Below are positions 19,837 through 53,353 of a DNA stretch of 64,000 nt, piece after piece. The stretch covers positions 8,697-72,696 of the forward strand of contig CAYGYX010000002.1 of the NCBI GenBank assembly GCA_964354255.1, in the 5' to 3' direction. The translations under genes were made by a program, and so were the position numbers. How positions within the stretch are numbered: position 1 is the stretch's first letter; each line of letters starts with the position of its first letter. The DNA comes from an uncultured Acidimicrobiia bacterium (lineage in GTDB: Bacteria > Actinomycetota > Acidimicrobiia > Spongiisociales > UBA11373). The notes under the pieces are model-generated. The model saw only the letters and a list, made by a program, of their open reading frames with translations, ran no database searches and was not told where the DNA came from.

Positions 19837-21117
19837 TCAGGCTGCCGGGCCGGCAGCGCGCAAGCGGATGCGCCAGAGGCTGGTGCCGGTGAGGAAGAGG
19901 GCCATGGCCACGATCGTGGCCGAGGCCCCGGTGTATACCGCAGGCAGCCCGAAGGCCTGGCCGGCGGCTCCGCCGAGCACCGCTCCGAGGGGCAGGCCGG
20001 CCCAGGAGAGGGTGCGCGAAGCGGCGATGACCCGGCCCCGGAGCCCCGGCGGGGGCAGCTGCTGGCGCATGGTCGTGAAGGCGACGTTGAGGAACGAGAC
20101 GCCGGTGACCGCCACCCCGGCAGGCAGGATGGCGAACAGAGTGGTGAGGGGCGGTGACAGCTCGGCGAGCGCCGGAGCGGCGAGGGCGAGAGCCAGGAAC
20201 CCTGCCCCCATGGCCCCCAGCCCGCAGACGAAGGTGCGACCCAGCCCGAGGCGCCGGGCCAGGGTGGGGGCGGCCACCACTCCCAGCGCCCCCAGCAGCG
20301 AGTGGCCCCCGAAGAACCAGCCGATGAGCGCGCTCTCCGTCAGCCCCAGCTGCTCTTGGCAGAACAGGACCAGCAGCGCCTCCATGGGGACGAAGACCAG
20401 GTTGGCGGCCGTCCCCGCCAGGGTGGTCACCCGCAGCGCCGGCAGCCGCCAGAGGCAGGACATGCCCTGGCGGAAGGAGCTCAGCCAGGGATCCCGGGCC
20501 GGGGCGGGGCGAGGACGGATCTCCATGAGGACCAGCAGCGTGGCGGCGGAGACCACGAAGGTCGCCGCGTCGAGGCCGAACGCCAGGCGAAAGCCGCCGG
20601 CGGTCCCCGCCAGAAAGCCCGCCAGAGGGGGGCCGAGTGTCCAGGCCAGGCTGCGCACGAACTGGAGGCGGCTGTTGACCACTACCAGGGCGTCATCCCC
20701 GGCGAGGGTGGGGAGCCAGGCCTGGAAGCCGGAGTCGAAGGTGACGGTGAGGCTCCCCACCACGAAGGCGGCCACAAAGACCATCCACACCTCGGCCACC
20801 CCGGCTGCTGCCGCCAGCCCGAGCGCGAGGAACGCCCAGGCCCGGGCCAGGTCGGCAATGATCAGGGTCCGGCGCAGAGGGGCCCGGTCGAGCAACACCC
20901 CCACCGCGAACCCGAAGAGCAGGGTGGGGATCGTCTCCAGAGCGGTGGTGAGTCCCAGGTCGAGAGCCGACCCGGTCAGGTGCACGACGAACAGGGGGAG
21001 AGCCAGCAGGGCGACGTAGTCCCCGAACAGGGAGGCCGACTGGCCGGCCAGGACCCACCGTACGTTGCGGCGGGCCGCGGCCGCATCGGCAGGGCGCAAC
21101 CGGCCGGTGCCGCTCAT
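19837..21117 (-). CDS. MFS transporter (12 TM)
   Basis: 426 aa and hydrophobic, with the MFS motif GVLLDRAPLRRTL after TM2. Confidence 0.75.
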   Translation of the reverse strand: MSGTGRLRPADAAAARRNVRWVLAGQSASLFGDYVALLALPLFVVHLTGSALDLGLTTALETIPTLLFGFAVGVLLDRAPLRRTLIIADLARAWAFLALGLAAAAGVAEVWMVFVAAFVVGSLTVTFDSGFQAWLPTLAGDDALVVVNSRLQFVRSLAWTLGPPLAGFLAGTAGGFRLAFGLDAATFVVSAATLLVLMEIRPRPAPARDPWLSSFRQGMSCLWRLPALRVTTLAGTAANLVFVPMEALLVLFCQEQLGLTESALIGWFFGGHSLLGALGVVAAPTLARRLGLGRTFVCGLGAMGAGFLALALAAPALAELSPPLTTLFAILPAGVAVTGVSFLNVAFTTMRQQLPPPGLRGRVIAASRTLSWAGLPLGAVLGGAAGQAFGLPAVYTGASATIVAMALFLTGTSLWRIRLRAAGPAA

Positions 21118-21179
21118 CGGCGGCGAGCCTAACCGCCGGCAGCCCGGCTTCCGGGGACCGGGCGGCGTACGATCTGCCG

Positions 21180-21767
21180 GTGAGCCCGGCCTACCTGCCT
21201 CTGCTGTCCATCCGCCGGGTGCTGGTGCCCGGAACGAGGGCGGCGTTGCCTTCCGCCCGTACGGACCTGCGGGCAGGGGAGCACGTGGTGACTGCTCTCG
21301 AGCCGGATGGAGACGAGCGGGCGGTAACCCGCTCGGTAGGCACCCTGGCTCACCTCGAGGAGGTGCGGCCCCTAGGGCCCGAGGCCGTCCTGTTGCGGCT
21401 CAGCGGCCGGCGGCTGGTCCGGCTCACGGAAGCGGAGCAGCGGGAAGGCCGGTGGTGGGCGAAGGTAGCCGAGATCGCCGAACCGAATCGGGAGGCGAGC
21501 CCTTTGATCGAAGAGGCCGAGAGGGCGGTGCGCCGGTACCTGGCCCTGCGGAGCGAGGCCGGAGAGGGCGGCGGGCCGATCGTCGAACTCAGCCGGGACC
21601 CGGTGGCCGCCTCACATGAGGTAGCCTCCAACCTGCACATCAGCTGGCCGGAAGTGCAGGACATCCTCGAGGCCGGCAGTGCCGCCGACCGGCTGCGCCG
21701 GGCGGGGGCCGTGCTCGACAGGGAAACGGAGCTGCTGCGGCGGCTCCTCGGCCGGGAAGGTACCTAG
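21180..21767 (+). CDS. LON N-terminal (substrate-binding, PUA-like) domain protein
   Basis: LPLLSIRRVLVPGTRAALP..EHVVTALEP..LAHLEEVRPLGPEAVLLRLSGRRLVRL matches the Lon N-domain pattern, with no AAA or protease domain. Confidence 0.55.
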   Translation: MSPAYLPLLSIRRVLVPGTRAALPSARTDLRAGEHVVTALEPDGDERAVTRSVGTLAHLEEVRPLGPEAVLLRLSGRRLVRLTEAEQREGRWWAKVAEIAEPNREASPLIEEAERAVRRYLALRSEAGEGGGPIVELSRDPVAASHEVASNLHISWPEVQDILEAGSAADRLRRAGAVLDRETELLRRLLGREGT

Positions 21768-36371: not shown

Positions 36372-36427
36372 GCACCCAGGCCCGCCACCCCGACCTATAC
36401 TCCCCGCCGCCCTGGTAGAGGAGCCGC

Positions 36428-36871
36428 ATGGTGCCCCCCCGTACCCCCCCGCCCGAGGACGATCTCGAGGAAGAAGAGCCGGAGGCTGAGGGCTGGCTCG
36501 ACGAGGAAGTCGAGGAACTCGACGAGGAGCCCGAACCCGATTTCGCCGCCGTGGTGGAGGTGGAAGAGGAAGAGGAAGAGGAAGAGGCGTACGAGGAGGG
36601 GGAGGCCGAGGAGGCCGAGGAGGCCGAGGAGGAGGCCCTCGACGAGCTCGAAGCCGAAGAGCTCGACATGCTCACCGAAGACGAGGCAGCGGAGTCGCTG
36701 CCGGTCGATGAGGTAGAGGAGCTGCGTCAGCTGCGCCGGGAGGCGATCGAGCTCGAGTTGGGAGCCGACGGGGCGGGGGAGGGTGAGTTCGTCTGCAGCG
36801 GCTGCTTCCTGGTCAAGCGCATCACTCAGCTCGCCGACAAGCGGAAGAGGCTCTGCCGGGACTGCGTGTGA
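36428..36871 (+). CDS. DUF4193 acidic protein with a C-terminal Cys4 motif
   Basis: Asp/Glu-rich N-terminal 100 aa and then EFVCSGCFLVKRITQLADKRKRLCRDCV. Confidence 0.6.
   Translation: MVPPRTPPPEDDLEEEEPEAEGWLDEEVEELDEEPEPDFAAVVEVEEEEEEEEAYEEGEAEEAEEAEEEALDELEAEELDMLTEDEAAESLPVDEVEELRQLRREAIELELGADGAGEGEFVCSGCFLVKRITQLADKRKRLCRDCV
36563..36637 (+). repeat. in-frame tandem codon repeats (GAAGAG)x4 and (GAGGCCGAG)x3 that encode poly-Glu / Glu-Ala
   Basis: Read directly from the sequence, inside the DUF4193 gene. Confidence 0.6.
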
Positions 36872-36905
36872 GGGTCCTCGGCTCCGCCGCGGCGCAGCCG
36901 CAGAG

Positions 36906-37724
36906 GTGCACCAGTTGAGGGGAGACACGGCCAAGAGCGCGCCGCCTCTGCGAGTCGCGCGCGGGAACGTCGTCTGCGACCTCGATGGGGTGGTCTACCT
37001 GTCCGATACCGCGGTGCCCGGCGCCGGTGCCGCACTATCGGAAATCGACCGCCGCGGGTACCGCCTGCTGTTCGCCACCAACGCCCCCATCCGCACACCG
37101 GAGGCAGTGGCCCTCCACATCACCTCGGTAAGTGGCTACCCCGCCGCCCCGGACCAGGTGGTCACCTCGGCGATGGCCGCCGCGGAAGTGCTCTCCCCTG
37201 CAGACGCACCGGTCCTGGTGGTGGGGGAGGCAGGGCTGGGCGTCACGCTGCAGCGGTCCGGGTTCTCGCTGACGGAGGATCCGCGGGAGGCTCGGGCCGT
37301 GGTGGTCGGCCTCGACCGCCGCCTGACGTACGACCATCTCCGCATCGCCGCTCAGGCCCTGCTGGGAGGTGCCCGGTTCATCGCCAGCAACCGGGATCCC
37401 ACCTACCCGACCGAGTTCGGGCCCTGGCCGGGGGGTGGGGCCATCGTGGCCGCCCTGGAGGCGGCCACGGGACGGACGGCCGAGGTGGTCGGCAAGCCCC
37501 ACCCACCGATGCGCGACGCCATCCGTCGGCGCCTGGGCTCCGGGCCCACCTGGGTGGTGGGTGACCGCCCGGAGACCGATCTGGCCCTGGGACGCGCAGA
37601 GGGGTGGACCACGGTGCTGGTCCTCACAGGCGTCGTCGAGGACCCCGCGCAGGTCCCCGAGGCCCTCCGTCCCGATCTGGTCCTGGCGACGATCGCCGAG
37701 CTGCCGGCTCACCTCCCAGGCTGA
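36906..37724 (+). CDS. HAD-superfamily hydrolase, subfamily IIA (NagD-like phosphatase)
   Basis: Motif I VVCDLDGVVY, motif II FATN and motif IV GDRPETDL. The GTG start at 36906 was chosen. The track ORF start at 36783 overlaps the upstream gene. Confidence 0.7.
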   Translation: MHQLRGDTAKSAPPLRVARGNVVCDLDGVVYLSDTAVPGAGAALSEIDRRGYRLLFATNAPIRTPEAVALHITSVSGYPAAPDQVVTSAMAAAEVLSPADAPVLVVGEAGLGVTLQRSGFSLTEDPREARAVVVGLDRRLTYDHLRIAAQALLGGARFIASNRDPTYPTEFGPWPGGGAIVAALEAATGRTAEVVGKPHPPMRDAIRRRLGSGPTWVVGDRPETDLALGRAEGWTTVLVLTGVVEDPAQVPEALRPDLVLATIAELPAHLPG

Positions 37725-37740
37725 AGCCGCTGCCTGCCGC

Positions 37741-38490
37741 CTACCAAGTGCCGGCCGCGACCGAGCGGGGAAGGGGCTGCGGGTTGAGGGTGTTGGCCAG
37801 CAGGCGCCGGCGCAGCGGCAGAGCGATCAGCACCCCGAAAAGGAACCCAGCGACGTGCGCTTCCCAGGCGATCCCGGAGGCCGCGTCGACGAGCAGGAAC
37901 TGGCTGACGATCCAGATCCCCAGGAAGGCGACGGCGGGAATGGCCACGATGCGGAACAGCACCAGAGTCAGCACCAGGTGGCGCGGGAAGAGGACCAGGT
38001 AGGCGCCCATCACCCCGGCGATCGCCCCGCTCGCTCCGACCAGAGGGATCGTGGTGTCCGGGTTGGCCCAAACGAACCCCGCCGTGGCAGCTATCCCCGA
38101 AGCGAGGTAGAACAGCAGGTAGGCGAAGGGCCCAAACGCCTCCTCGACGTTGTTGCCGAAGATCCACAGGCTCCACATGTTGAACAGCAGGTGGGCAGCG
38201 CCCCCGTGCAGGAACATGGAGACCCCGGCCGCCAGCCACACGTTCTTGCCGCCGAAATAGGGGGTGGAGGGCTCTTCGCGGCAGACCCCCCCGTTGATCT
38301 CGGCCAGATCGAGCGCGTCGCCGGTGGTCAGCTCGCAGGCGATGGCGGCCCGCTCGTACAGGAACTCGGCTTCCTCCTGGGTCCCGCTCGCCGGCTGCAG
38401 CGCGAAGAACACGATCGCGCAGCCGGCGATGATGGCCCAGCTGATGAGGGGGCGGGCCCGGGTGGGGTTGACATCGCGAATCGGCAGCAA
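37741..38490 (-). CDS. rhomboid-family intramembrane serine protease
   Basis: Carries the GxSG motif (GASGAIAGVMGAYL) and a downstream His in TM6 (HVAGFLFG), across 6 TM segments. Confidence 0.8.
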   Translation of the reverse strand: MLPIRDVNPTRARPLISWAIIAGCAIVFFALQPASGTQEEAEFLYERAAIACELTTGDALDLAEINGGVCREEPSTPYFGGKNVWLAAGVSMFLHGGAAHLLFNMWSLWIFGNNVEEAFGPFAYLLFYLASGIAATAGFVWANPDTTIPLVGASGAIAGVMGAYLVLFPRHLVLTLVLFRIVAIPAVAFLGIWIVSQFLLVDAASGIAWEAHVAGFLFGVLIALPLRRRLLANTLNPQPLPRSVAAGTW

Positions 38491-38528
38491 ATCCGCTTCC
38501 TGTCCCCGCGGGGAGGGATAATAGCTGT

Positions 38529-38657
38529 ATGGATTCTACGCGGATCGACTCCCTGCTCCACGATCTGGAGGATGCCGACCCCGCCGACGCTCCCGACCTC
38601 GCCGAGGCTGTGGCCCGGGCGCTGTCCAGCGGGCTCGATACCGGGGCGGTCCGCTGA
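38529..38657 (+). CDS. small acidic upstream ORF (42 aa) whose stop overlaps the probable tlyA start
   Basis: MDSTRIDSLLHDLEDADPADAPDLAEAVARALSSGLDTGAVR. It has a strong SD (GGGAGGG) 9 nt upstream of the ATG. Its TGA at 38655..38657 overlaps CTG 38654. It is too short for the ORF track. Confidence 0.35.
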   Translation: MDSTRIDSLLHDLEDADPADAPDLAEAVARALSSGLDTGAVR

Positions 38658-39436
38658 CCCGCCGTCGACTCGACCTGGAGTTGGTGCGGCGCGGACTGCT
38701 CACTACCCGCTCCGCGGCACAGCGGGCAATCGCCGAAGGGCGGGTCCTGGTCGGCGGCATGCCTGCCACCCGGTCGGCAACGCTGGTGGATGAGCAAGTG
38801 GCCCTGTCGCTCGTCCGGGAAGGCCCGCAGTGGGCGAGTCGCGGCGGCGTCAAGCTGGCCGCCGCCCTGGAGGCGTTCGCCGTGGACCCCTCCGGCCGGC
38901 GGTGCCTCGACGTGGGCGCCTCCACCGGCGGCTTCACCGACGTGCTCGTGGCCCGGGGGGCGGCCAGCGTGGCTGCGGTCGACGTCGGTTACGGCCAACT
39001 CGACTGGCGGCTGCGCTCCGACCCCCGGGTGAGGGTCTTCGACCGCACCAACTTCCGTACGGCCGACCCGGGGGCACTGGGAGCTCCCTTCGACATGGCC
39101 ACCATGGACGTCTCTTTCATCTCGATCCGCCTGCTGGCCGCCAATCTGGCGGCTTGCGGCCGGCCCGGCACCGACTACGTTGTCCTCGTGAAGCCCCAGT
39201 TCGAGGTTGGGCGAGAGCACGTTGGTCGCGGCGGCCTGGTCACCGACCCTCTCCGGCAGGCGTCCGCGATCGACGGCGCGGCCCGGGCGCTGGCCGCGGT
39301 GGGCATAGGCCCCATCGGGGTCTGCGCCTCACCGATCGCCGGCACTACGGGCAATCGCGAGTTCTTCCTGCACGGCCGACACGGTGCCGGTCCGGCCGTC
39401 GACCGAGCGTCGGTCGAGGCAATGGTGACCCGATGA
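38654..39436 (+). CDS. tlyA: 16S/23S rRNA (cytidine-2'-O)-methyltransferase TlyA (S4 + FtsJ-like)
   Basis: S4 domain (T)RRRLDLELVRRGLLTTRSAAQRAIAEGRVLVGGMP plus the MTase motif LDVGASTGGFTDVL. The conserved N-terminus begins 9 codons upstream of the first canonical start (TTG 38681). The proposed start is CTG 38654. A conservative alternative is 38681..39436. Confidence 0.75.
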   Translation: MTRRRLDLELVRRGLLTTRSAAQRAIAEGRVLVGGMPATRSATLVDEQVALSLVREGPQWASRGGVKLAAALEAFAVDPSGRRCLDVGASTGGFTDVLVARGAASVAAVDVGYGQLDWRLRSDPRVRVFDRTNFRTADPGALGAPFDMATMDVSFISIRLLAANLAACGRPGTDYVVLVKPQFEVGREHVGRGGLVTDPLRQASAIDGAARALAAVGIGPIGVCASPIAGTTGNREFFLHGRHGAGPAVDRASVEAMVTR

Positions 39437-40258
39437 GGCTGGCACTGATCATCCACCCCGAGCGCGACAGCGCCGCCGCCCTGGCCGCCGACCTCGTCGC
39501 CCGGGCGGCGAGCCGGGGCATCGAGGTCTCCGCCGAGCCGGCCGACGCAGCCCGCGTGCCCGGCACCTCGGTTCGTACCCCCGGCCGGCCTCTCCAGGCC
39601 GATGTGGTCGTCGCGGTCGGCGGTGACGGCACGGTGCTCGAGGCGGTGCGAGTGGGCCTGGCGGCCGACCTGCCGGTGCTGGGCGTCAACGCGGGGCACC
39701 TGGGCTTCCTCACCCGTGTCGAGCCCGAGCGCCTCGACGAGGCGCTCGACGCCCTGGCGGCGGGGGGCTGGGCCGAGTCGCCGAGAATGACCCTGACCGC
39801 TCGCGTGGCCGGGAAGCCGGCGGCCGTTGGGATCAACGACGTAGTGGTCGAGAAGGCGGTCAGCCAGCACGTCGTCAAGATCTCGGTGACGGTAGGGGCC
39901 GAGCACCTGGTCTCCTATCGCGCCGATGGGGTGGTGGTCGCCACGCCCACGGGCTCCACCGCCTACACGTTCTCTGCGGGCGGGCCGCTGGTCGACCCCG
40001 AACTCGAAGCCCTCGTGATCACCGCGGTCGCCCCCCACAACCTCTTTGGGCGCCCCATCGTCCTGCGACCCGATCAGCACCTGCGGCTGACGGTGGACGA
40101 CGATCGCCCGGCTCGGGTCAACGTCGACGGCCGGACCCTGACCCTGCTCACCCCGGGAGAGCATGTCGAGGTAGCCCGGGGCGATCGGTCGGCTCGCTTC
40201 ATCGAGCTGTGGCCGCGCAACTTCGCGGTCTCGGTGCGCGAGAAGTTCCACCTGCACG

Positions 40259-40266
<8 letters not shown>
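39433..40266 (+). CDS. nadK: NAD kinase
   Basis: Carries GGDGT (VVAVGGDGTVLEA) and NGHLGFLT motifs. The start was refined to MRLALIIHPE (ATGA overlap with tlyA). The track ORF start at 38830 was rejected. Confidence 0.85.
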
Positions 40267-43592
<3,326 letters not shown>

Positions 43593-43598
43593 GGCACG

Positions 43599-44144
43599 GT
43601 GCGCCGGCCAGCCTTGACCCTCCTCGGCAAGCGCTTCGTGGCTCGGGGGCAGTTCATCGCCCTGGAACGGGCCTACTACCTGGCCGACGGCGGGAGATGG
43701 GTGGCACGCGAGGTCATTCGCCACCCGGGATCGGCTGCGGTCGTCCTATGGGACGGCCGGCGCGTCCATCTGGTGCGGCAGCATCGCGCCGCAGTGGGCG
43801 GAAGCCTCCTCGAACTCCCCGCCGGGAAACTGGACGTCGCCGGGGAGCCGCCCCACCTGGCCGCCCGGCGTGAGTGCGTGGAGGAGCTGGGCCTGCAGCC
43901 GGGCCGCCTCACCCTTCTCCACATCGGCTACACCTCGCCCGGTTTCACCGACGAGCTGACCTGGATCTACCTCGGCGAGGACCTGACTGCGACGTCCGCC
44001 GCGCCGCAGGGGCCAGAAGAGGCGGCGGCCGAGGTGGTGAGCTTGTCGTTGGACGAGGTCGTCTCCGCGCTGGAAGATGGGGACGTGCGCGACGCCAAGA
44101 CCATCCTCGGACTGTGCAGCCTCCTCCGCCGCCTGGGCCGATGA
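43599..44144 (+). CDS. NUDIX hydrolase (ADP-ribose pyrophosphatase-like)
   Basis: Nudix box GKLDVAGEPPHLAARRECVEELG. Confidence 0.7.
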   Translation: MRRPALTLLGKRFVARGQFIALERAYYLADGGRWVAREVIRHPGSAAVVLWDGRRVHLVRQHRAAVGGSLLELPAGKLDVAGEPPHLAARRECVEELGLQPGRLTLLHIGYTSPGFTDELTWIYLGEDLTATSAAPQGPEEAAAEVVSLSLDEVVSALEDGDVRDAKTILGLCSLLRRLGR

Positions 44145-45091
44145 CCCTCGAAGAGCGCATCGCCGAGTACCTGGCTGCTCTCCGAGCGGAGCGGGGGCTG
44201 GCCGACGCCACCATTGCTGCCTACCGACGGGACCTGCGCCAGTACGCCGCGGCGTTGGGCGGGGCCTGGCCGGGGGCAGCGGCCGTTTCCGCGTTCGTTC
44301 GCGGCCTTCACGAGCGGGGCCTCGCCCCCGCCTCGGTGGCCCGCAAGGTCGCCGCCATCCGCGGATTCCATCGGTTCCTGGTGGCAGAGGGGCTCTGCCA
44401 GGAGGACCCGACCGTGCTGATCGATGCCCCGCGCCGGCCGGCTGCCCTGCCGAAAGCGCTCACGGTCGAGGAGGTCGTGCGGCTTCTCGAGGCTCCCGAC
44501 CCGGCTGCCCGCGGGGGGCGCCGTGACCGGGCCTTGCTGGAGTTCATGTACGCCACCGGGGCCCGGGTAGCGGAAGTGGTGGGTCTCCAGCAAATGGATC
44601 TCGATCTACCGGAGGAGGGGGAGAACGATAAGAAGAGGAGGGACCGACAGGGCCAGGAGCGTGAGGAGGAGCAGGAAAGGGCCGCCACTGCCCGGCTGAT
44701 GGGAAAGGGCCGCCGTGAGCGAGTGGTCCCGGTGGGGAAGCCGGCGTGCGAGGCGATCAGGGCCTACCTGCCCGACCGCCTCGCCATGCGCCAACCCGGG
44801 CGAGACCCAGGGGTGCTGTTCCTCAACAACCGGGGGCGGAGGCTCACGCGGCAGGGGGTATGGACGATCGTGCGCCGCCACGCACTGCGGGCCGGGCTCG
44901 ACCCAGAGAAGGTGTCGCCGCACGTGCTGCGACACTCGGCGGCGACCCACATGGTGGAGAGGGGAGCCGACCTGAGAGTCGTACAGGAACTCCTCGGGCA
45001 CGCTAGCATTGGGACCACACAGGTCTACACCCGAGTGTCCCCGCCGCACCTGCTCGAGGTGTATGCCACTTCCCACCCCCGCAGCACCTGA
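44141..45091 (+). CDS. xerD: site-specific tyrosine recombinase XerD
   Basis: Start refined to MTLEERIAEYLAAL (ATGA overlap with the nudix gene). Catalytic residues are in the R..HxxR..Y context (HVLRHSAATHM..GHASIGTTQVYT). An insert rich in Lys, Arg and Glu sits between the core-binding and catalytic domains. Confidence 0.8.
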   Translation: MTLEERIAEYLAALRAERGLADATIAAYRRDLRQYAAALGGAWPGAAAVSAFVRGLHERGLAPASVARKVAAIRGFHRFLVAEGLCQEDPTVLIDAPRRPAALPKALTVEEVVRLLEAPDPAARGGRRDRALLEFMYATGARVAEVVGLQQMDLDLPEEGENDKKRRDRQGQEREEEQERAATARLMGKGRRERVVPVGKPACEAIRAYLPDRLAMRQPGRDPGVLFLNNRGRRLTRQGVWTIVRRHALRAGLDPEKVSPHVLRHSAATHMVERGADLRVVQELLGHASIGTTQVYTRVSPPHLLEVYATSHPRST

Positions 45092-45098
45092 GGCCCTG

Positions 45099-45452
45099 AT
45101 GAGCACAGCTACCTTCCCCGACGCCGAGCAGCGCCTACGCCAGGAGCGCAGCAAGCTGGTGCACCAGCTCGCGGAGCTCGGCGCCGACGAGACCGGAGAG
45201 CTCCGGGCCGACGTGGAGTTCGGCGACGGCTTTGCCGACGCCGCCGCCGCCACGGCCGAGCGAACCGAGGTGCTGGGGCTGGTGGACTCCCTCAAGAAGA
45301 ACCTCGACGACGTCCACCTTGCTCTGGGCCGGATCCAGGAGGGCCTGTACGGCGTCTGCATCGGGTGCGGCCGCGACATCGGTACCGACCGGCTGGCCTT
45401 CCGGCCGGAGTCGGTGTACTGCGTCGAGTGCAAGGCCAGGGCCGGGTCCTGA
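45099..45452 (+). CDS. DksA/TraR-family C4-type zinc-finger protein
   Basis: Coiled-coil N-terminus plus CIGCGRDIG...CVEC. The start was refined to MSTATFPD. Confidence 0.6.
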   Translation: MSTATFPDAEQRLRQERSKLVHQLAELGADETGELRADVEFGDGFADAAAATAERTEVLGLVDSLKKNLDDVHLALGRIQEGLYGVCIGCGRDIGTDRLAFRPESVYCVECKARAGS

Positions 45453-45486
45453 ACAACAGGGCGGCCTCTTCGGCAGGGGCGGCCGG

Positions 45487-46176
45487 ATGATCGACGACAA
45501 CCGGGTGCTTGACGTCGTCCTCTTCCTGGCCGTGCTCCTCCCCAGCGTGATCTTCCACGAGGTGGCCCACGGGTGGGTAGCGGAGCGGTTGGGCGACCCG
45601 ACCCCCCGCCGGGCGGGCCGCATCACCCTCAACCCGATTCGGCACATCGACCCGGTCGGCTCCTTGCTGTTCCCGGCCCTCCTCGCCGCGGCCGGCCAGA
45701 GCGTCTGGGGATGGGCTCGCCCGGTCCCGGTCGAGCCCCGCCACTTCCGGCATCCCACCCGGGGCATGGCCTGGGTGGCCCTGGCCGGCCCGGCCAGCAA
45801 CCTGGCGCTGGGCGCGGTGGTAGCCCGGTTCGGACCGTTCATTGACCTGCGTGGTGCCGCCGACTCGGCGGCACCACCGGCCGCGGTGTACTGGCCCAGG
45901 CTGGAGGTCGGGGCCACCAGCGGGGCGCTCTGGGCCCGGGTGCTCTTCGCCTTCGTGCTGGTCAACTGCGCCCTGGCGGTGTTCAACATGCTCCCTATCC
46001 CGCCGCTCGACGGCAGCCGGCTCGTCCCCCTCGCTCTTCCCCCCGGGGGGCGGGAGGCCTTCAACCGCCTGGCCCCCTATGGCTTCTTGATCATCTTCCT
46101 CCTCGTCGTCGTGTTCCCCGGCGCGCTCGCCTTCGTGGGCGACGCGGTCGGCTGGCTGCTCCGAGTCCTGGTGTGA
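45487..46176 (+). CDS. site-2 protease family (M50) membrane metalloprotease
   Basis: HExxH in a TM helix (IFHEVAHG) and LPIPPLDG motif. The start was refined to MIDDNRV. Confidence 0.7.
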   Translation: MIDDNRVLDVVLFLAVLLPSVIFHEVAHGWVAERLGDPTPRRAGRITLNPIRHIDPVGSLLFPALLAAAGQSVWGWARPVPVEPRHFRHPTRGMAWVALAGPASNLALGAVVARFGPFIDLRGAADSAAPPAAVYWPRLEVGATSGALWARVLFAFVLVNCALAVFNMLPIPPLDGSRLVPLALPPGGREAFNRLAPYGFLIIFLLVVVFPGALAFVGDAVGWLLRVLV

Positions 46177-46652
46177 TGCGCCATCTCTCGCACCTGGCGC
46201 GACGGGCCTTGGGGGCCCTGTGCCTTCGCCCGCTCCAGCCCGCCGAGCAGGCGGAGGCAGCCCGGCTCCTGCGCCCGGAAGAGAGAAGGCTGTTCTGGGG
46301 ACAGGCCGCCGCCGACCAGCGGCACGCCCTGGGGTGCGCCCGGGTGGTGCTCGAGCGTGCCCCCGGCCGGCCCGACCTGGCACGGGCCGCCCTCTTGCAC
46401 GACGTGGGCAAGGGCACGGTTCGCCTCGGGGTCGGCGGCCGGGTGCTGGCCACCGGCCTTTCTCTCCTCCATCTCCCCACCCCCGGACGCCTTGGTGCCT
46501 ACCTGGCCCACGGGTGCCGCGGGGCCCACGAACTGGCAAGGGCACGAGCGGAGCCGCTGGTGGTGGCCTACGCCCGCCACCACCACGCCGCCCGCCCGCC
46601 CGCGGTCTCCGCGGAGGACTGGGACCTGCTGGAGGCCGCCGACCGGGCCTGA
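46173..46652 (+). CDS. HD-domain-like phosphohydrolase (weak)
   Basis: AALLHDVGK motif plus upstream and downstream His residues. Otherwise it is a low-complexity Ala/Arg-rich sequence. Confidence 0.35.
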   Translation: MMRHLSHLARRALGALCLRPLQPAEQAEAARLLRPEERRLFWGQAAADQRHALGCARVVLERAPGRPDLARAALLHDVGKGTVRLGVGGRVLATGLSLLHLPTPGRLGAYLAHGCRGAHELARARAEPLVVAYARHHHAARPPAVSAEDWDLLEAADRA

Positions 46653-46696
46653 AAGCCGGGGCCGGCGCGCCCCGTGGCAATACCATGGGGTGTCGC

Positions 46697-47455
46697 ATGA
46701 GCTACCAGGTCAGGACGCCGGTCTTCGAGGGCCCCCTCGACTTGCTGCTGCGCCTGATCACGGAGCGGCAGGTCGAGATCACCGAGGTAAGCCTCCTCGA
46801 CCTGGTCGATGAGTACCTGGCTCATCTCGCCCTGTTGCCGGATCTCGACATCGATTCCGCCAGCGAGTTCCTGGTCATCGCCGCCACCCTGATCCAGTTG
46901 AAGGCGCGTCGGCTGCTGCCCGGCTCGGCGGGGGTCGACCTCGATGAGGAACTGGCCCTGGCCGAGGAGCGCGACCGCCTGCTGAGCCGGCTCCTGGCCT
47001 GCCTCACCTTCAAGGATGTGGCGGCGGTCTTCGCCCACCGCCTCGAGGCCACGGCCCGCTTGGTGGGGCGGTACGCCGGACTCGACCCCGGTCTCGTCCC
47101 GCCGCCCCCTCTCGTCAACCTGCCGGTGACCGCCGCCGACCTGGCCGGCCTGGCGACTCGCCTGCTCTCGAGGCGCCGCGAGCTCGAGCTTGATCACCTG
47201 GACCTCGACCTGCCTTCCGTGGCCGCCGCCATCGAGGAAGTGCGGCGGCGGGTAGCAGCGGAGGTGCAAACCGACTTCGAGAGGCTCACCGCCCACCTGG
47301 GCAGGCCGCTCGAGGTGGTGGCGTACTTCCTGGCCGTGCTCGAGCTGGCCCGCTGGGGGCTCGTGCAAGCGGCCCAGGAGCACCCGGGAGCCCCGATCGT
47401 CCTCCACCACCGCACCAATCCCGACCGGGAGCTTGTGAGCGAATGGCCGAGCTGA
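46697..47455 (+). CDS. scpA: segregation and condensation protein A
   Basis: MSYQVRTPVFEGPLDLLLRLITERQVEITEVSLLDLVDEYL. The start was refined (alternative ATG at 46685). The track ORF start at 46220 was rejected. Confidence 0.8.
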   Translation: MSYQVRTPVFEGPLDLLLRLITERQVEITEVSLLDLVDEYLAHLALLPDLDIDSASEFLVIAATLIQLKARRLLPGSAGVDLDEELALAEERDRLLSRLLACLTFKDVAAVFAHRLEATARLVGRYAGLDPGLVPPPPLVNLPVTAADLAGLATRLLSRRRELELDHLDLDLPSVAAAIEEVRRRVAAEVQTDFERLTAHLGRPLEVVAYFLAVLELARWGLVQAAQEHPGAPIVLHHRTNPDRELVSEWPS

Positions 47456-48033
47456 ACGACCTCGTGGCAACCTTGGAAGCCATCCTGTTCGTGGCCGAGG
47501 ACCCGGTGCCCGTACGGGAGATTGCCGAGGTGTTGGAGGTGCCGCTCGCGTCCGTGGAGGAGGGTCTGGCCGCCCTCCAGGCTCGGCTCGAGGCAACCGG
47601 GGCCGGGCTGGTGGTGCGGCCGGCAGCGGCGGGCTGGCGCCTTTACACCCGACCCGACCTCCACCCCTACCTCGAGCGCTTCGCCGCGGGCGCCACCGCC
47701 GCCCGCCTCAGCCGCGCCGCGTTGGAGACACTGGCGGTCGTGGCCTACCGCCAGCCGGTGTCGCGAGCCCAGATCGGGGAGATCCGCGGGGTCGACTCCG
47801 ACCACGCCCTCCGTACCCTGGAACGACGGGGCCTCGTGGACGTGGTAGGGCGGGCCGGAGGGCCGGGACAGGCCGCCCTCTACGGCACCACCGACCTCTT
47901 CTTGGAGAAGCTGGGTATGCGGTCGCGCGCTGAGCTGCCGCCCCTGGCCGACCACGTGCCCCCGGCCGGAATCGTCGATCGGCTCGAGGAGCCTTTCCGC
48001 CCGGAGGAACCATCGAGCGACTCCAGCGCCTGA
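47443..48033 (+). CDS. scpB: segregation and condensation protein B
   Basis: LEAILFVAEDPVPVREIAEVL..GAGLVVRPAAAGWRLYTRPD..TLAVVAYRQPVSRAQIGEIRGV, i.e. the tandem wHTH of ScpB. Confidence 0.8.
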   Translation: MAELNDLVATLEAILFVAEDPVPVREIAEVLEVPLASVEEGLAALQARLEATGAGLVVRPAAAGWRLYTRPDLHPYLERFAAGATAARLSRAALETLAVVAYRQPVSRAQIGEIRGVDSDHALRTLERRGLVDVVGRAGGPGQAALYGTTDLFLEKLGMRSRAELPPLADHVPPAGIVDRLEEPFRPEEPSSDSSA

Positions 48034-48716
48034 TCGCCCACGCCGGGCTGGCTTCCCGGCGCGCCGCCGAGGACATGGTCCGGGCCGGCCGGGTCACCGT
48101 GGATGGGCGGGCCGCCCACCTCGGACAGAAGGTCGATCCCGCCACCGCCCGGGTAGAGGTCGACGGCATCCCACTCCCCATTCGTCCCGACCTGGTCTAC
48201 TACCTGCTGTTCAAGCCGGCCGGGGTGGTAAGCACCGCCTCCGACCCGCAAGGGCGGCCCACGGTGGTGGACCTGGTGCCCAAGGGCACCCGCGTCTACC
48301 CGGTCGGGCGCCTCGACGCCGACACCGAGGGGTTGGTCATCCTCACCAACGACGGGGACCTGGCGGCGCGGGTGACCCATCCCCGCCACGGCGTCGGCAA
48401 GACCTACCTGGCCCGGGTCACCGGCAACCCGGGGAGGGCGGCCCTGCGGGCGCTCATCGCCGGGGTGGAGTTGGAGGACGGCCCCGCCCGCGCTCGGGAG
48501 GCCCGGCTGGTGAGTCAACAGCGGGGCGAGGCACTGGTCCAGTTGGTCATGGGAGAGGGCCGCAAGCGAGAGGTGCGTCGCCTGCTGGCGGCAGTGGGCC
48601 ACCCGGTGCTGGCCCTGGTCCGCACAGCCATCGGCCCCGTTACCGACCGCGGCCTCAAGCCCGGAGCCTGGCGCGAACTCACTCTCGACGAGATCCGCTC
48701 CCTCTACATGGGATGA
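48012..48716 (+). CDS. rluB: 23S rRNA pseudouridine synthase RluB (S4 + RsuA-family catalytic domain); start codon uncertain
   Basis: S4 domain (I)ERLQRLIAHAGLASRRAAEDMVRAGRVTVDG plus catalytic GRLDADTEGLVILTNDG. The conserved S4 N-terminus lies upstream of the first canonical start (ATG 48075). There is no ATG/GTG/TTG in frame between the stop at 47931 and 48075. An ATC at 48012 is the proposed near-cognate start. The conservative CDS is 48075..48716. Confidence 0.7.
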   Translation: MERLQRLIAHAGLASRRAAEDMVRAGRVTVDGRAAHLGQKVDPATARVEVDGIPLPIRPDLVYYLLFKPAGVVSTASDPQGRPTVVDLVPKGTRVYPVGRLDADTEGLVILTNDGDLAARVTHPRHGVGKTYLARVTGNPGRAALRALIAGVELEDGPARAREARLVSQQRGEALVQLVMGEGRKREVRRLLAAVGHPVLALVRTAIGPVTDRGLKPGAWRELTLDEIRSLYMG

Positions 48717-48723
48717 TGACCGG

Positions 48724-49989
48724 GTGGTGACGTTCCGCGTTCCCCCGGGCCTGTTCCGCGCCGACACCAGAGTGCCCGGGGACAAGTCACTCTCGCACCG
48801 TGCTCTGATCCTGGCGGCCCTGGCGAAAGGGGTCAGCTACGTGCTGGGTGCGGGCCCCGGGGAGGATGTCGCCGCCACCCGCCGGGCGGTGGAGGGGCTG
48901 GGGATCGCCTTCGACGGGGACTTGGTCCGATCACCCGGGGCAGGCGCCTGGACGGAACCGGCTGGCCCCATCGATGCCGGCAACTCGGCGACCACGTTGC
49001 GCCTGCTCGCCGGTGCCCTGGCCGCTCAGCCGTTCCGTACCACCTTGGTGGGAGATGCCTCGCTGATGCGCCGCCCCATGAGCCGGCTGGTTGCTCCCCT
49101 CGCCGCCCTGGGGGCCTCAGTCGAGGTCGGCCCCGAGGGCCTCCCCCCGGTGACTGTCGGGGGAGCGGCCCTGCACGGCGCCGACATCCAGGTCCCGGTG
49201 GCTTCGGGCCAGGTGCGCAGCGCGGTCGCCCTGGCCGCGCTGCAGGCGGATTGCCCTACCACGATCACCTCCCCCCCCGGCTTTCGCGACCATACGGAAC
49301 GCTGGTTGGAGGCCAGGGGCCTCGGGCGTCGCCTCTCGGAGGTGGACTTCCTGGTCCTTCCCGGGCCTGTGCCGCCCGGCGTCTACGCGATACCCGGCGA
49401 CCTCTCCTCGGCCGCCCTCCTCCTGGCGGCCGCTGCCCTCCGGCCGGGGTCCGAGGTGACCGTGCGCAATGTCACCCTCAACCCGGGCCGCACCGGCTTC
49501 CTGGATCTCCTTGAGGCGATGGGCGCCCGGGTCTTGCGTCGCGCCACCGGCCTGGTGTACGGCGATCCGATCGGCGACATCACCGTGTTCGGAGAGGAGC
49601 TACGACCGGTCCACGTGAGCGGCACCCTGGCGGTCAGGGCGCTGGACGAACTGCCCCTGGTCGCGGTCCTCGGGGCGGCGGCGACCGGGGAGACGGTGGT
49701 GTCGGGGGCCGCCGAACTCCGTGTCAAGGAGAGCGATCGGGCCGCGGCCGCCGTTCGCCTGGTCCGGGGCCTGGGGGGGCAAGCCACCGAGCTCCCCGAC
49801 GGGTTCATCGTCACCGGGCGAGGCGGCCTGGCGGGGGGCGAGGTCGATGCCGCCGGCGACCACCGAGTGGCCATGGCTGCCGCGGTCGCCGGGGTGATCT
49901 CGCCCGGGGGAGTCACGGTACGAGGCTTCGAGGCCGCGGCCGTATCCTGGCCCGGCTTCGCCGACGCTCTGGAGGCGCTGTGGTCGTGA
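48724..49989 (+). CDS. aroA: 3-phosphoshikimate 1-carboxyvinyltransferase (EPSP synthase)
   Basis: LPGDKSLSHRALILAALA N-terminal signature and the RPMSRLVAPL motif, in 421 aa. Confidence 0.85.
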   Translation: MVTFRVPPGLFRADTRVPGDKSLSHRALILAALAKGVSYVLGAGPGEDVAATRRAVEGLGIAFDGDLVRSPGAGAWTEPAGPIDAGNSATTLRLLAGALAAQPFRTTLVGDASLMRRPMSRLVAPLAALGASVEVGPEGLPPVTVGGAALHGADIQVPVASGQVRSAVALAALQADCPTTITSPPGFRDHTERWLEARGLGRRLSEVDFLVLPGPVPPGVYAIPGDLSSAALLLAAAALRPGSEVTVRNVTLNPGRTGFLDLLEAMGARVLRRATGLVYGDPIGDITVFGEELRPVHVSGTLAVRALDELPLVAVLGAAATGETVVSGAAELRVKESDRAAAAVRLVRGLGGQATELPDGFIVTGRGGLAGGEVDAAGDHRVAMAAAVAGVISPGGVTVRGFEAAAVSWPGFADALEALWS

Positions 49990-53223: not shown

Positions 53224-53298
53224 CGGGCTGTGGCGCAGCTTGGTTAGCGCGCTTGACTGGGGGTCAAGAGGTCGCCGGTTCGAATCCGGCCAGCCCGA
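53224..53298 (+). tRNA. tRNA-Pro (anticodon GGG)
   Basis: Manual cloverleaf: acceptor CGGGCUG/CAGCCCG, D-stem GCGC/GCGC, anticodon stem CUUGA/UCAAG, loop CUGGGGG (U33, G34-G36 = GGG, G37), T-arm GCCGG-UUCGAAU-CCGGC and discriminator A. 75 nt with no encoded CCA. Confidence 0.8.
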
Positions 53299-53353
53299 CG
53301 GAGCTCCGCCTCCTGCCGGGCTTCGTCGGCGTTCCGGCGAGGAAGGTTGAGGA

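Follow-up and report, generated by a model that had tools for sequence, protein, structure and literature searches.

A conserved CTG overlapping the stop of a small upstream open reading frame as the probable start codon of tlyA in an uncultured Acidimicrobiia lineage

The gene tlyA, which encodes an S4-domain methyltransferase of the TlyA family, lies on the plus strand of a 64,000-nucleotide (nt) window (the whole stretch of DNA analysed here) of contig CAYGYX010000002.1 (GCA_964354255.1), from an uncultured Acidimicrobiia bacterium. This report concerns where its translation begins. The tlyA frame, 38525..39436, follows an in-frame stop TAG (38522-38524) and ends at TGA 39434-39436; searched from that TAG, its first canonical start codon is TTG 38681, followed by GTG 38684. 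A sequence-only reading of the window had stated that no ATG, GTG or TTG stands in this frame between the stop at 38522 and TTG 38681, and had pointed to CTG 38654, overlapping the TGA of a small acidic open reading frame (ORF), as a candidate start; both statements hold. The only near-cognate codons before TTG 38681 are CTG 38525 and CTG 38654. The last two bases of the latter (38654-38656) are the first two of the TGA (38655-38657) that ends the small ORF, 38529..38657, of 42 amino acids (aa), 10 of them acidic and 3 basic. The features around the junction are these:

38517..38522, plus strand: GATAAT, candidate -10 hexamer, ending 6 nt before the small-ORF ATG at 38529
38529..38657, plus strand: small acidic ORF of 42 aa (MDSTRIDSLLHDLEDADPADAPDLAEAVARALSSGLDTGAVR), ATG-initiated, with homologous 42-46-aa ORFs in relatives
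38643..38646, plus strand: weak Shine-Dalgarno (SD)-like GGGG at -11..-8 from the CTG, GAGG in most relatives
38654..38657, plus strand: CTGA junction, the proposed CUG start of tlyA overlapping the UGA stop of the small ORF
38654..39436, plus strand: tlyA coding sequence as proposed, 260 aa plus stop, with S4 and FtsJ-type methyltransferase domains
38657..38680, plus strand: tlyA codons 2-9 (TRRRLDLE), 5' of every canonical start and including R3, R5 and D7
38684..38686, plus strand: publicly annotated tlyA start GTG, product P0001, 250 aa

Read from the CTG, the protein scores 207.6 bits against the TlyA family model TIGR00478 (cut-off 185.8), profile positions 1-228 matching residues 5-236. 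Pfam S4 covers residues 4-47 (E = 1.3e-8), with position 1 of the profile on residue 4, and Pfam FtsJ covers residues 60-241 (E = 1.4e-38). Against NF049952, the equivalog model for 23S ribosomal RNA (rRNA) TlyA, the score is 152.2 bits, below the cut-off of 250, and the protein is therefore placed at the level of the TlyA family only; its substrate may be 23S only, or 16S and 23S.

Alignment to the TlyA of Mycobacterium tuberculosis (PDB 7S0S; E = 1.7e-66) spans residues 3-254 and begins with residue 3 opposite mycobacterial Arg4, in agreement with the earlier suggestion that S4 sequence resembling the mycobacterial N-terminus lies 5' of the canonical starts. R3, R5 and D7 correspond to Arg4, Arg6 and Asp8, the two N-termini differing in length by one residue, and R19 (in T-T-R-S) aligns to R20. 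The window protein keeps the Arg6/Asp8/Arg20 triad, R5 and D7 being included only if translation begins 5' of 38666. In the M. tuberculosis enzyme recognition of the rRNA junction at the base of H69 falls to Arg6 and Arg20, the substitution R6A abolishes methylation of the 50S subunit, and Arg4 contributes as well, especially on the 30S subunit; Arg6 and Asp8 are near-universally conserved among TlyA proteins (PMC9168844). A TlyA starting at 38681 or 38684 would be without the equivalents of Arg4, Arg6 and Asp8.

The comparison set comprised 14 clade loci, namely the window and 13 relatives taken from assemblies of JGI, ENA, NCBI and Logan, whose TlyA proteins are 58%-83% identical in pairwise comparison (median 68%). 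Scans of genome contigs with full-length TlyA and of metagenome contigs with its N-terminal 74 aa gave, among the matches listed, the close relatives L083 and L084 and a distant locus bearing the CTG, L002. Across the 14 loci, codons 2-9 of tlyA vary at all eight third positions (for example CGC/CGT/CGG/CGA, CTC/CTG, GAC/GAT and GAG/GAA), at one first position and at two second positions, that is at 3 of the 16 first and second positions. The same coding pattern was not seen in the 30 nt upstream of the CTG when the 14-locus alignment was read in the tlyA frame. Since the small ORF is over before codons 2-9, no other reading frame explains the pattern. On this evidence codons 2-9 are translated, the substitutions being those of selection on protein sequence, and because the pattern runs from codon 2 and is not seen in the 30 nt upstream, the start should lie at the CTG or within one codon of it. 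Sequence that is translated by this measure is here preceded by no ATG, GTG or TTG in its frame.

These codons bear directly on one of the explanations that the sequence-only reading had offered, a functionally truncated S4 domain. TlyA would then start at GTG 38684 or TTG 38681, and its S4 domain would be without the first 9-10 residues. Public annotation takes this course: P0001, the protein of the source genome, is 100% identical, 250 aa long and has the N-terminus MRRGLL, gene callers chose that start for the source genome and for many relatives, and a canonical codon at position 10 or 11 is present in 14/14 loci. The codons that would be lost, however, show coding-type substitution, varying almost only at third positions, and they encode the equivalents of Arg6, which is essential, and Asp8. 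TTG is found at codon 10 in only two of the 14 loci, and the GGAG before the GTG lies just 3 nt from it, too near for a normal SD sequence.

Nor do the public annotations behave like a conserved start. Among the 120 nearest TlyA clusters, 76 are annotated from downstream of R5-D7, and their truncated N-termini begin at 11 positions (residues 8, 10, 11, 15, 16, 31-33, 36, 38 and 45), a scatter to be expected of spurious calls by gene callers limited to ATG, GTG and TTG. In a neighbour-joining tree, which carries no support values and is indicative only, the truncated TlyA calls group with the CTG loci. We consider truncation very unlikely, and GTG 38684 is most likely an internal valine codon.

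The CTG itself recurs at the aligned position in every clade locus (14/14), always within a CTGA that ends the homologous small ORF, such that two co-oriented ORFs share a four-base stop/start overlap of the NTGA type throughout. The CTGA is kept despite variation in the small-ORF tail, whose sequence differs among loci and whose length gives ORFs of 42, 44 or 46 aa, and despite an extra downstream Arg codon in one locus (L172). L002, from a more distant Acidimicrobiia metagenome-assembled genome with 55% TlyA identity, reads CTG ACC CGC at the same position, preceded by GGAAGGGGAG, a better SD sequence; its small-ORF homologue uses the other frame and has its stop ~20 nt past the CTG. Read from the CTG, TlyA is 258-260 aa long in 15/15 loci (the 14 clade loci and L002).

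Canonical starts further upstream are few and do not line up. In 10 of the 14 clade loci the stretch from the in-frame stop to the RLD motif contains no canonical start; in three a canonical codon (TTG, TTG, ATG) is found 16 codons upstream, inside the small ORF and unconserved, and in the remaining one the nearest lies far off, at 157 codons. It had been suggested that close relatives be aligned to see whether an ATG or GTG exists at the equivalent of 38654: none does within the clade, and outgroups have GTG or GTGA there. The outgroup loci with GTG at this codon are L094 (GTG ACG), L010 and the Actinomadura locus L006 (GTGA), and L001 (TAGTG), and in all four the GTG start overlaps the stop of an upstream ORF. 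The candidate codon is in this way conserved (CTG in 15/15) and matched by a canonical start at the same position in outgroups. More widely, 126 of ~144 classifiable diverse TlyA loci have a canonical start at most 15 codons upstream of the RLD motif. Those without a nearby one are this clade and three scattered loci, and as the exceptions belong almost entirely to this clade, the absence is not chance.

Loss of a canonical start through a sequencing or assembly error, or in a decaying pseudogene, was weighed against the same set. The source is a metagenome-assembled genome, in which single-base errors do occur. An independent Logan assembly of run ERR3804373 is nevertheless identical across the junction, the same CTGA is present in 13 further assemblies, and the ORF is uninterrupted and passes the TIGR00478 cut-off. 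The sequencing error that the sequence-only reading had allowed for is excluded by these assemblies, and we give practically no credence to this explanation as a whole. Initiation or reinitiation on the CTG, coupled to the small ORF, is the best supported of the three options which that reading had named, through the codon pattern, the conservation of CTGA and the outgroup GTG, since error is excluded and a truncated S4 domain is very unlikely.

A TlyA locus unrelated to this clade, on the Vicinamibacterales chromosome OY760734.1 (L064, 2940-3030), also has no canonical start. It reads ATC CTG ACG CCG where its relatives L079 and L035 read CTG ATG CCG, an ATG to ACG change; either an assembly error or a non-canonical start of independent origin, at ATC, CTG or ACG, may account for it. 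Two further TlyA loci without a nearby canonical start are L044 and L098.

The small ORF has a homologue of 42-46 aa at the same place in all clade relatives. Over 34 codons its column entropy by codon position is 0.44/0.36/0.96, a coding-type profile, and its consensus reads MD-T-LDS-L--LE-ADPADAP-LA-AV. It matched no family in Pfam or NCBIfam; only ten clusters were found in the protein database, all named 'hypothetical protein'. Across the 15 loci GAGG, GGAG or GGGG occupies -11..-8 and is followed by a 7-nt spacer to the CTG. This element may help initiation at the CTG; its bases also encode Glu/Gly of the small ORF. An Rfam scan of 38300-38900 gave only a chance miRNA match (E = 0.4), and the consensus fold of the junction over 13 loci, at -5 kcal/mol and with zero covariation, indicates neither an RNA switch nor a coupling hairpin. 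The lack of a conserved RNA structure or Rfam family at the junction argues against an RNA-unfolding mechanism.

We consider it probable that tlyA starts at the conserved CUG 38654 and is coupled by termination-reinitiation to a probably leaderless ORF of 42-46 aa, which would yield the full-length TlyA of 260 aa. The messenger RNA would be leaderless, with its 5' end at ATG 38529, and ribosomes that had translated the 42-aa ORF and terminated at UGA 38655-38657 would step back one base to reinitiate on CUG 38654. Initiation on the CUG would use fMet-tRNA and proceed by reinitiation rather than by SD-driven 30S binding. The junction would likely go back to a G-to-C change in an ancestral GTGA that never reverted. 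More speculatively, the weak start would hold TlyA at a low level and make its production depend on the small ORF being translated. That the small-ORF stop is fixed at the -4 overlap despite its variable tail length counts for coupling through the CTGA. Among prokaryotic coupling motifs NTGA is the commonest (PMC12548453), and CTG starts have been verified in Escherichia coli for hda and yfjD (PMC3531124).

Several points weigh against a CUG start. In Mycobacterium smegmatis, the single actinobacterial system in which it has been tried, CUG is a very poor initiator, making up 0.03% of selected leadered starts and being inactive at the leaderless position (PMC4633059), and it serves as a 'non-start' control in work on M. 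tuberculosis (PMC11260477). Every clade locus has an internal canonical start, which is ATG at codon 10 in L171 and GTG at codon 11 in the others. Being related, the 14 loci do not count as fully independent, and the CUG start is predicted from sequence. The invariance of the CTG is uninformative alone, as the overlapping TGA dictates its T and G and TTG accounts for only ~9.5% of Leu codons in these genes. The start column is the only one of 10 invariant-Leu columns to have a single codon in 14/14 loci. Invariance as proof of selection was accordingly rejected: given the overlapping TGA the sole alternative is TTG, and the result is not significant.

The poor record of CUG as an initiator in mycobacteria also lends something to a different reading of the overlap, in which the small ORF and TlyA would form one fusion protein through a -1 shift or stop suppression at the UGA, with the CUG read as Leu. 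The small ORF is in the +1 frame relative to tlyA, which would permit a -1 shift, and at the AUGA overlap of M. tuberculosis uPPE2-PPE2 a frameshifted uORF-PPE2 fusion accompanies what is mostly termination-reinitiation (PMC11260477). The junctions of the clade (GTC CGC TGA, ACC CAC TGA, GCA AAC TGA and CAG GCC TGA) contain no slippery heptamer (X XXY YYZ), however, and both the last sense codon (CGC, CAC, AAC or GCC) and the codons before it vary; with no slippery site shared among the junctions, programmed frameshifting was rejected. The tail of the small ORF that would be fused is variable in length and sequence. In L002, moreover, where the small ORF uses the other frame and stops past the CTG, the CTG is nevertheless retained and has a better SD sequence, and the GTG-start outgroups clearly make two proteins. 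An acidic extension of 42-46 aa would also lie over the N-terminal Arg residues through which TlyA contacts rRNA. A fusion protein is, on these grounds, unlikely.

Initiation on the CUG by reinitiation presupposes translation of the small ORF, which is probably translated from the mRNA 5' end as the upstream partner in translational coupling. In 14/14 aligned loci and in L002 an invariant ATAAT, within the hexamer G/A-ATAAT, is separated from the ATG by 6 nt (7 nt in L172). A -10 hexamer 6-7 nt upstream of a first-codon ATG with no SD sequence between them, the arrangement of a leaderless gene, is therefore found in 15 loci, and the small ORF is probably leaderless, GATAAT acting as the -10 box of a transcript predicted to begin at the A of the ATG. 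A sigma-70 consensus scan found no promoter; such a scan requires a -35 box, of which none is present, and GATAAT is accordingly assigned only by its conservation and its spacing. The perfect TTGACA hexamer at 38468-38473 (plus strand, within the 5' end of the rhomboid gene described below) was rejected as a -35 box, being too far from GATAAT at 43 nt. The strong SD sequence GGGAGGG with which the sequence-only reading had credited the small ORF did not stand up: the element (GGGGAGGG, 38510-38517) exists, 11-12 nt upstream of the ATG, and is unconserved, relatives having GCGAGCG, GGCGAGTA or GCCGGGTG at its position.

The genes that flank the small ORF and tlyA are the following:

37741..38490, minus strand: rhomboid protease gene (Pfam Rhomboid, E = 8e-33), in a conserved arrangement
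39433..40266, plus strand: NAD kinase gene nadK (Pfam NAD_kinase and NAD_kinase_C), its ATG overlapping the tlyA stop (ATGA)
from 40259, plus strand: recN, with an 8-nt overlap with nadK

In 14/14 clade loci the HAD phosphatase gene and the small ORF are separated by the rhomboid gene, which is on the opposite strand. With this divergent gene 5' of the small ORF, the promoter of the tlyA operon must lie in the 38-nt intergenic gap. Both the TTG start of the rhomboid gene (38490, minus strand) and its SD sequence AGGAAG (plus-strand GCTTCCTGTC; 38491-38510) are conserved. The gap holds two sets of start signals, and part of it is the rhomboid gene's own SD sequence.

The order HAD phosphatase, rhomboid protease (opposite strand), small ORF, tlyA, nadK, recN is the same across relatives. 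Tight coupling would carry on from tlyA into nadK through the ATGA and into recN through the 8-nt overlap, and many further ATGA and GTGA junctions occur in the window. Over a longer span (36400-48800) the order is DUF4193, HAD phosphatase, small ORF, tlyA, nadK, recN, pyrG, NUDIX, further genes, scpA, scpB and an rluB-like gene. This span appears collinear with what we take to be the corresponding region of M. tuberculosis, Rv1692-Rv1711, where the order HAD phosphatase, small ORF, tlyA, nadK, recN is presumably the same. The sole transfer RNA (tRNA) gene in the window is tRNA-Pro(GGG), at 53224-53299 on the plus strand.

A second S4-domain gene of the window has a comparable N-terminus:

frame 47934..48716, plus strand: RluB/RsuA-type pseudouridine synthase (S4 and PseudoU_synth_2), downstream of scpB

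Its first canonical start is ATG 48075, and position 1 of the Pfam S4 profile falls on Glu 48015. The in-frame sequence upstream of the ATG, ERLQRLIAHAGLASRR, matches the N-termini of more distant homologues (MERLQKLIAHSG...), and the conserved N-terminus ERLQRLIAHAGL... precedes any ATG, GTG or TTG. The start may be ATC 48012, which GGAGGA (48003-48008) precedes by three nt, or CTG 48030, which forms a CTGA with the scpB stop (48031-48033) and would drop a conserved Arg. In the database 100 of the 120 nearest clusters of this protein are annotated in N-terminally truncated form.

Stop-to-stop Pfam scans of 20 other window genes gave no further clear case of a domain starting before the first canonical start. 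In an ORF for a LON substrate-binding protein (20952-21767, plus strand) the Pfam alignment begins at profile position 63 and residue 127, and the projected start of the domain falls ~12 residues ahead of the first canonical start (21180), which is ambiguous; an earlier start would overlap a divergent MFS transporter gene. Two S4-domain rRNA-modifying enzymes among ~60 window genes suggest, quite tentatively, that non-canonical initiation could be a habit of the lineage and not an oddity of one gene, although we hold this more doubtful than not.

The CTG start is already present in one database record. For a relative, GCA_016870535.1 (L170), NCBI annotates the CTG itself as the start, at position 1501, giving a product of 260 aa that begins MTRRRLD (P0042). 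In another relative a non-conserved upstream TTG was chosen (P0019). TlyA is probably mis-annotated at its N-terminus systematically in this clade, and the RluB-like synthase probably is too.

The finding combines phenomena that are each known: a non-canonical start, termination-reinitiation coupling at NTGA, and a leaderless small ORF. As in E. coli hda and yfjD, the gene is a chromosomal housekeeping gene whose conserved N-terminus lies 5' of any ATG, GTG or TTG. For hda and yfjD the annotated TTG and GTG starts proved wrong and the CTG was confirmed by mutagenesis (PMC3531124), whereas the tlyA CTG start is predicted from sequence. Unlike the E. coli cases, the tlyA CTG is conserved across a clade diverged to ~58% identity and sits within a stop/start overlap, and its host is an actinobacterium, from a group where CUG proved essentially inactive when tested. 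With uPPE2-PPE2 and other ATGA and GTGA pairs it shares the four-base overlap, an SD sequence that is weak at best, a short upstream ORF and coupled operon neighbours. It differs from the described NTGA cases (ATGA, GTGA and TTGA) in that N is C, giving a non-canonical start, and in that coupling is here predicted.

The small ORF in turn resembles the small leaderless ORFs with which mycobacterial transcripts commonly begin (Shell et al. 2015, PMC4633059), with an AT-rich -10 element directly 5' of the ATG, no room for an SD sequence, and a protein that is small, conserved and unannotated. It differs from them in that its host belongs to an uncultured lineage near Acidimicrobiia and in that its leaderless start is predicted. 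M. tuberculosis TlyA (Rv1694; PDB 7S0S, 5KYG) has the same S4 and FtsJ architecture as the window protein, and, unlike it, its gene has a canonical start.

The CUG start is unusual in being kept across a deep actinobacterial clade, such starts being rare in bacteria. For the TlyA family, the public 250-aa protein and the products of 76 of the 120 nearest clusters, being without the Arg6 and Asp8 equivalents, are predicted to be inactive on the 50S subunit if modelled or expressed as annotated, and start prediction restricted to ATG, GTG and TTG fails systematically in this clade. If non-canonical initiation did turn out to be lineage-wide, it may reflect relaxed start-codon discrimination, for example through an altered IF3 or initiator tRNA; alternatively, weak starts and coupling may systematically hold down rRNA-modification enzymes. 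The CUGA overlap offers a natural test of whether termination-reinitiation bypasses the discrimination against CUG, a codon that is a non-start in mycobacteria.

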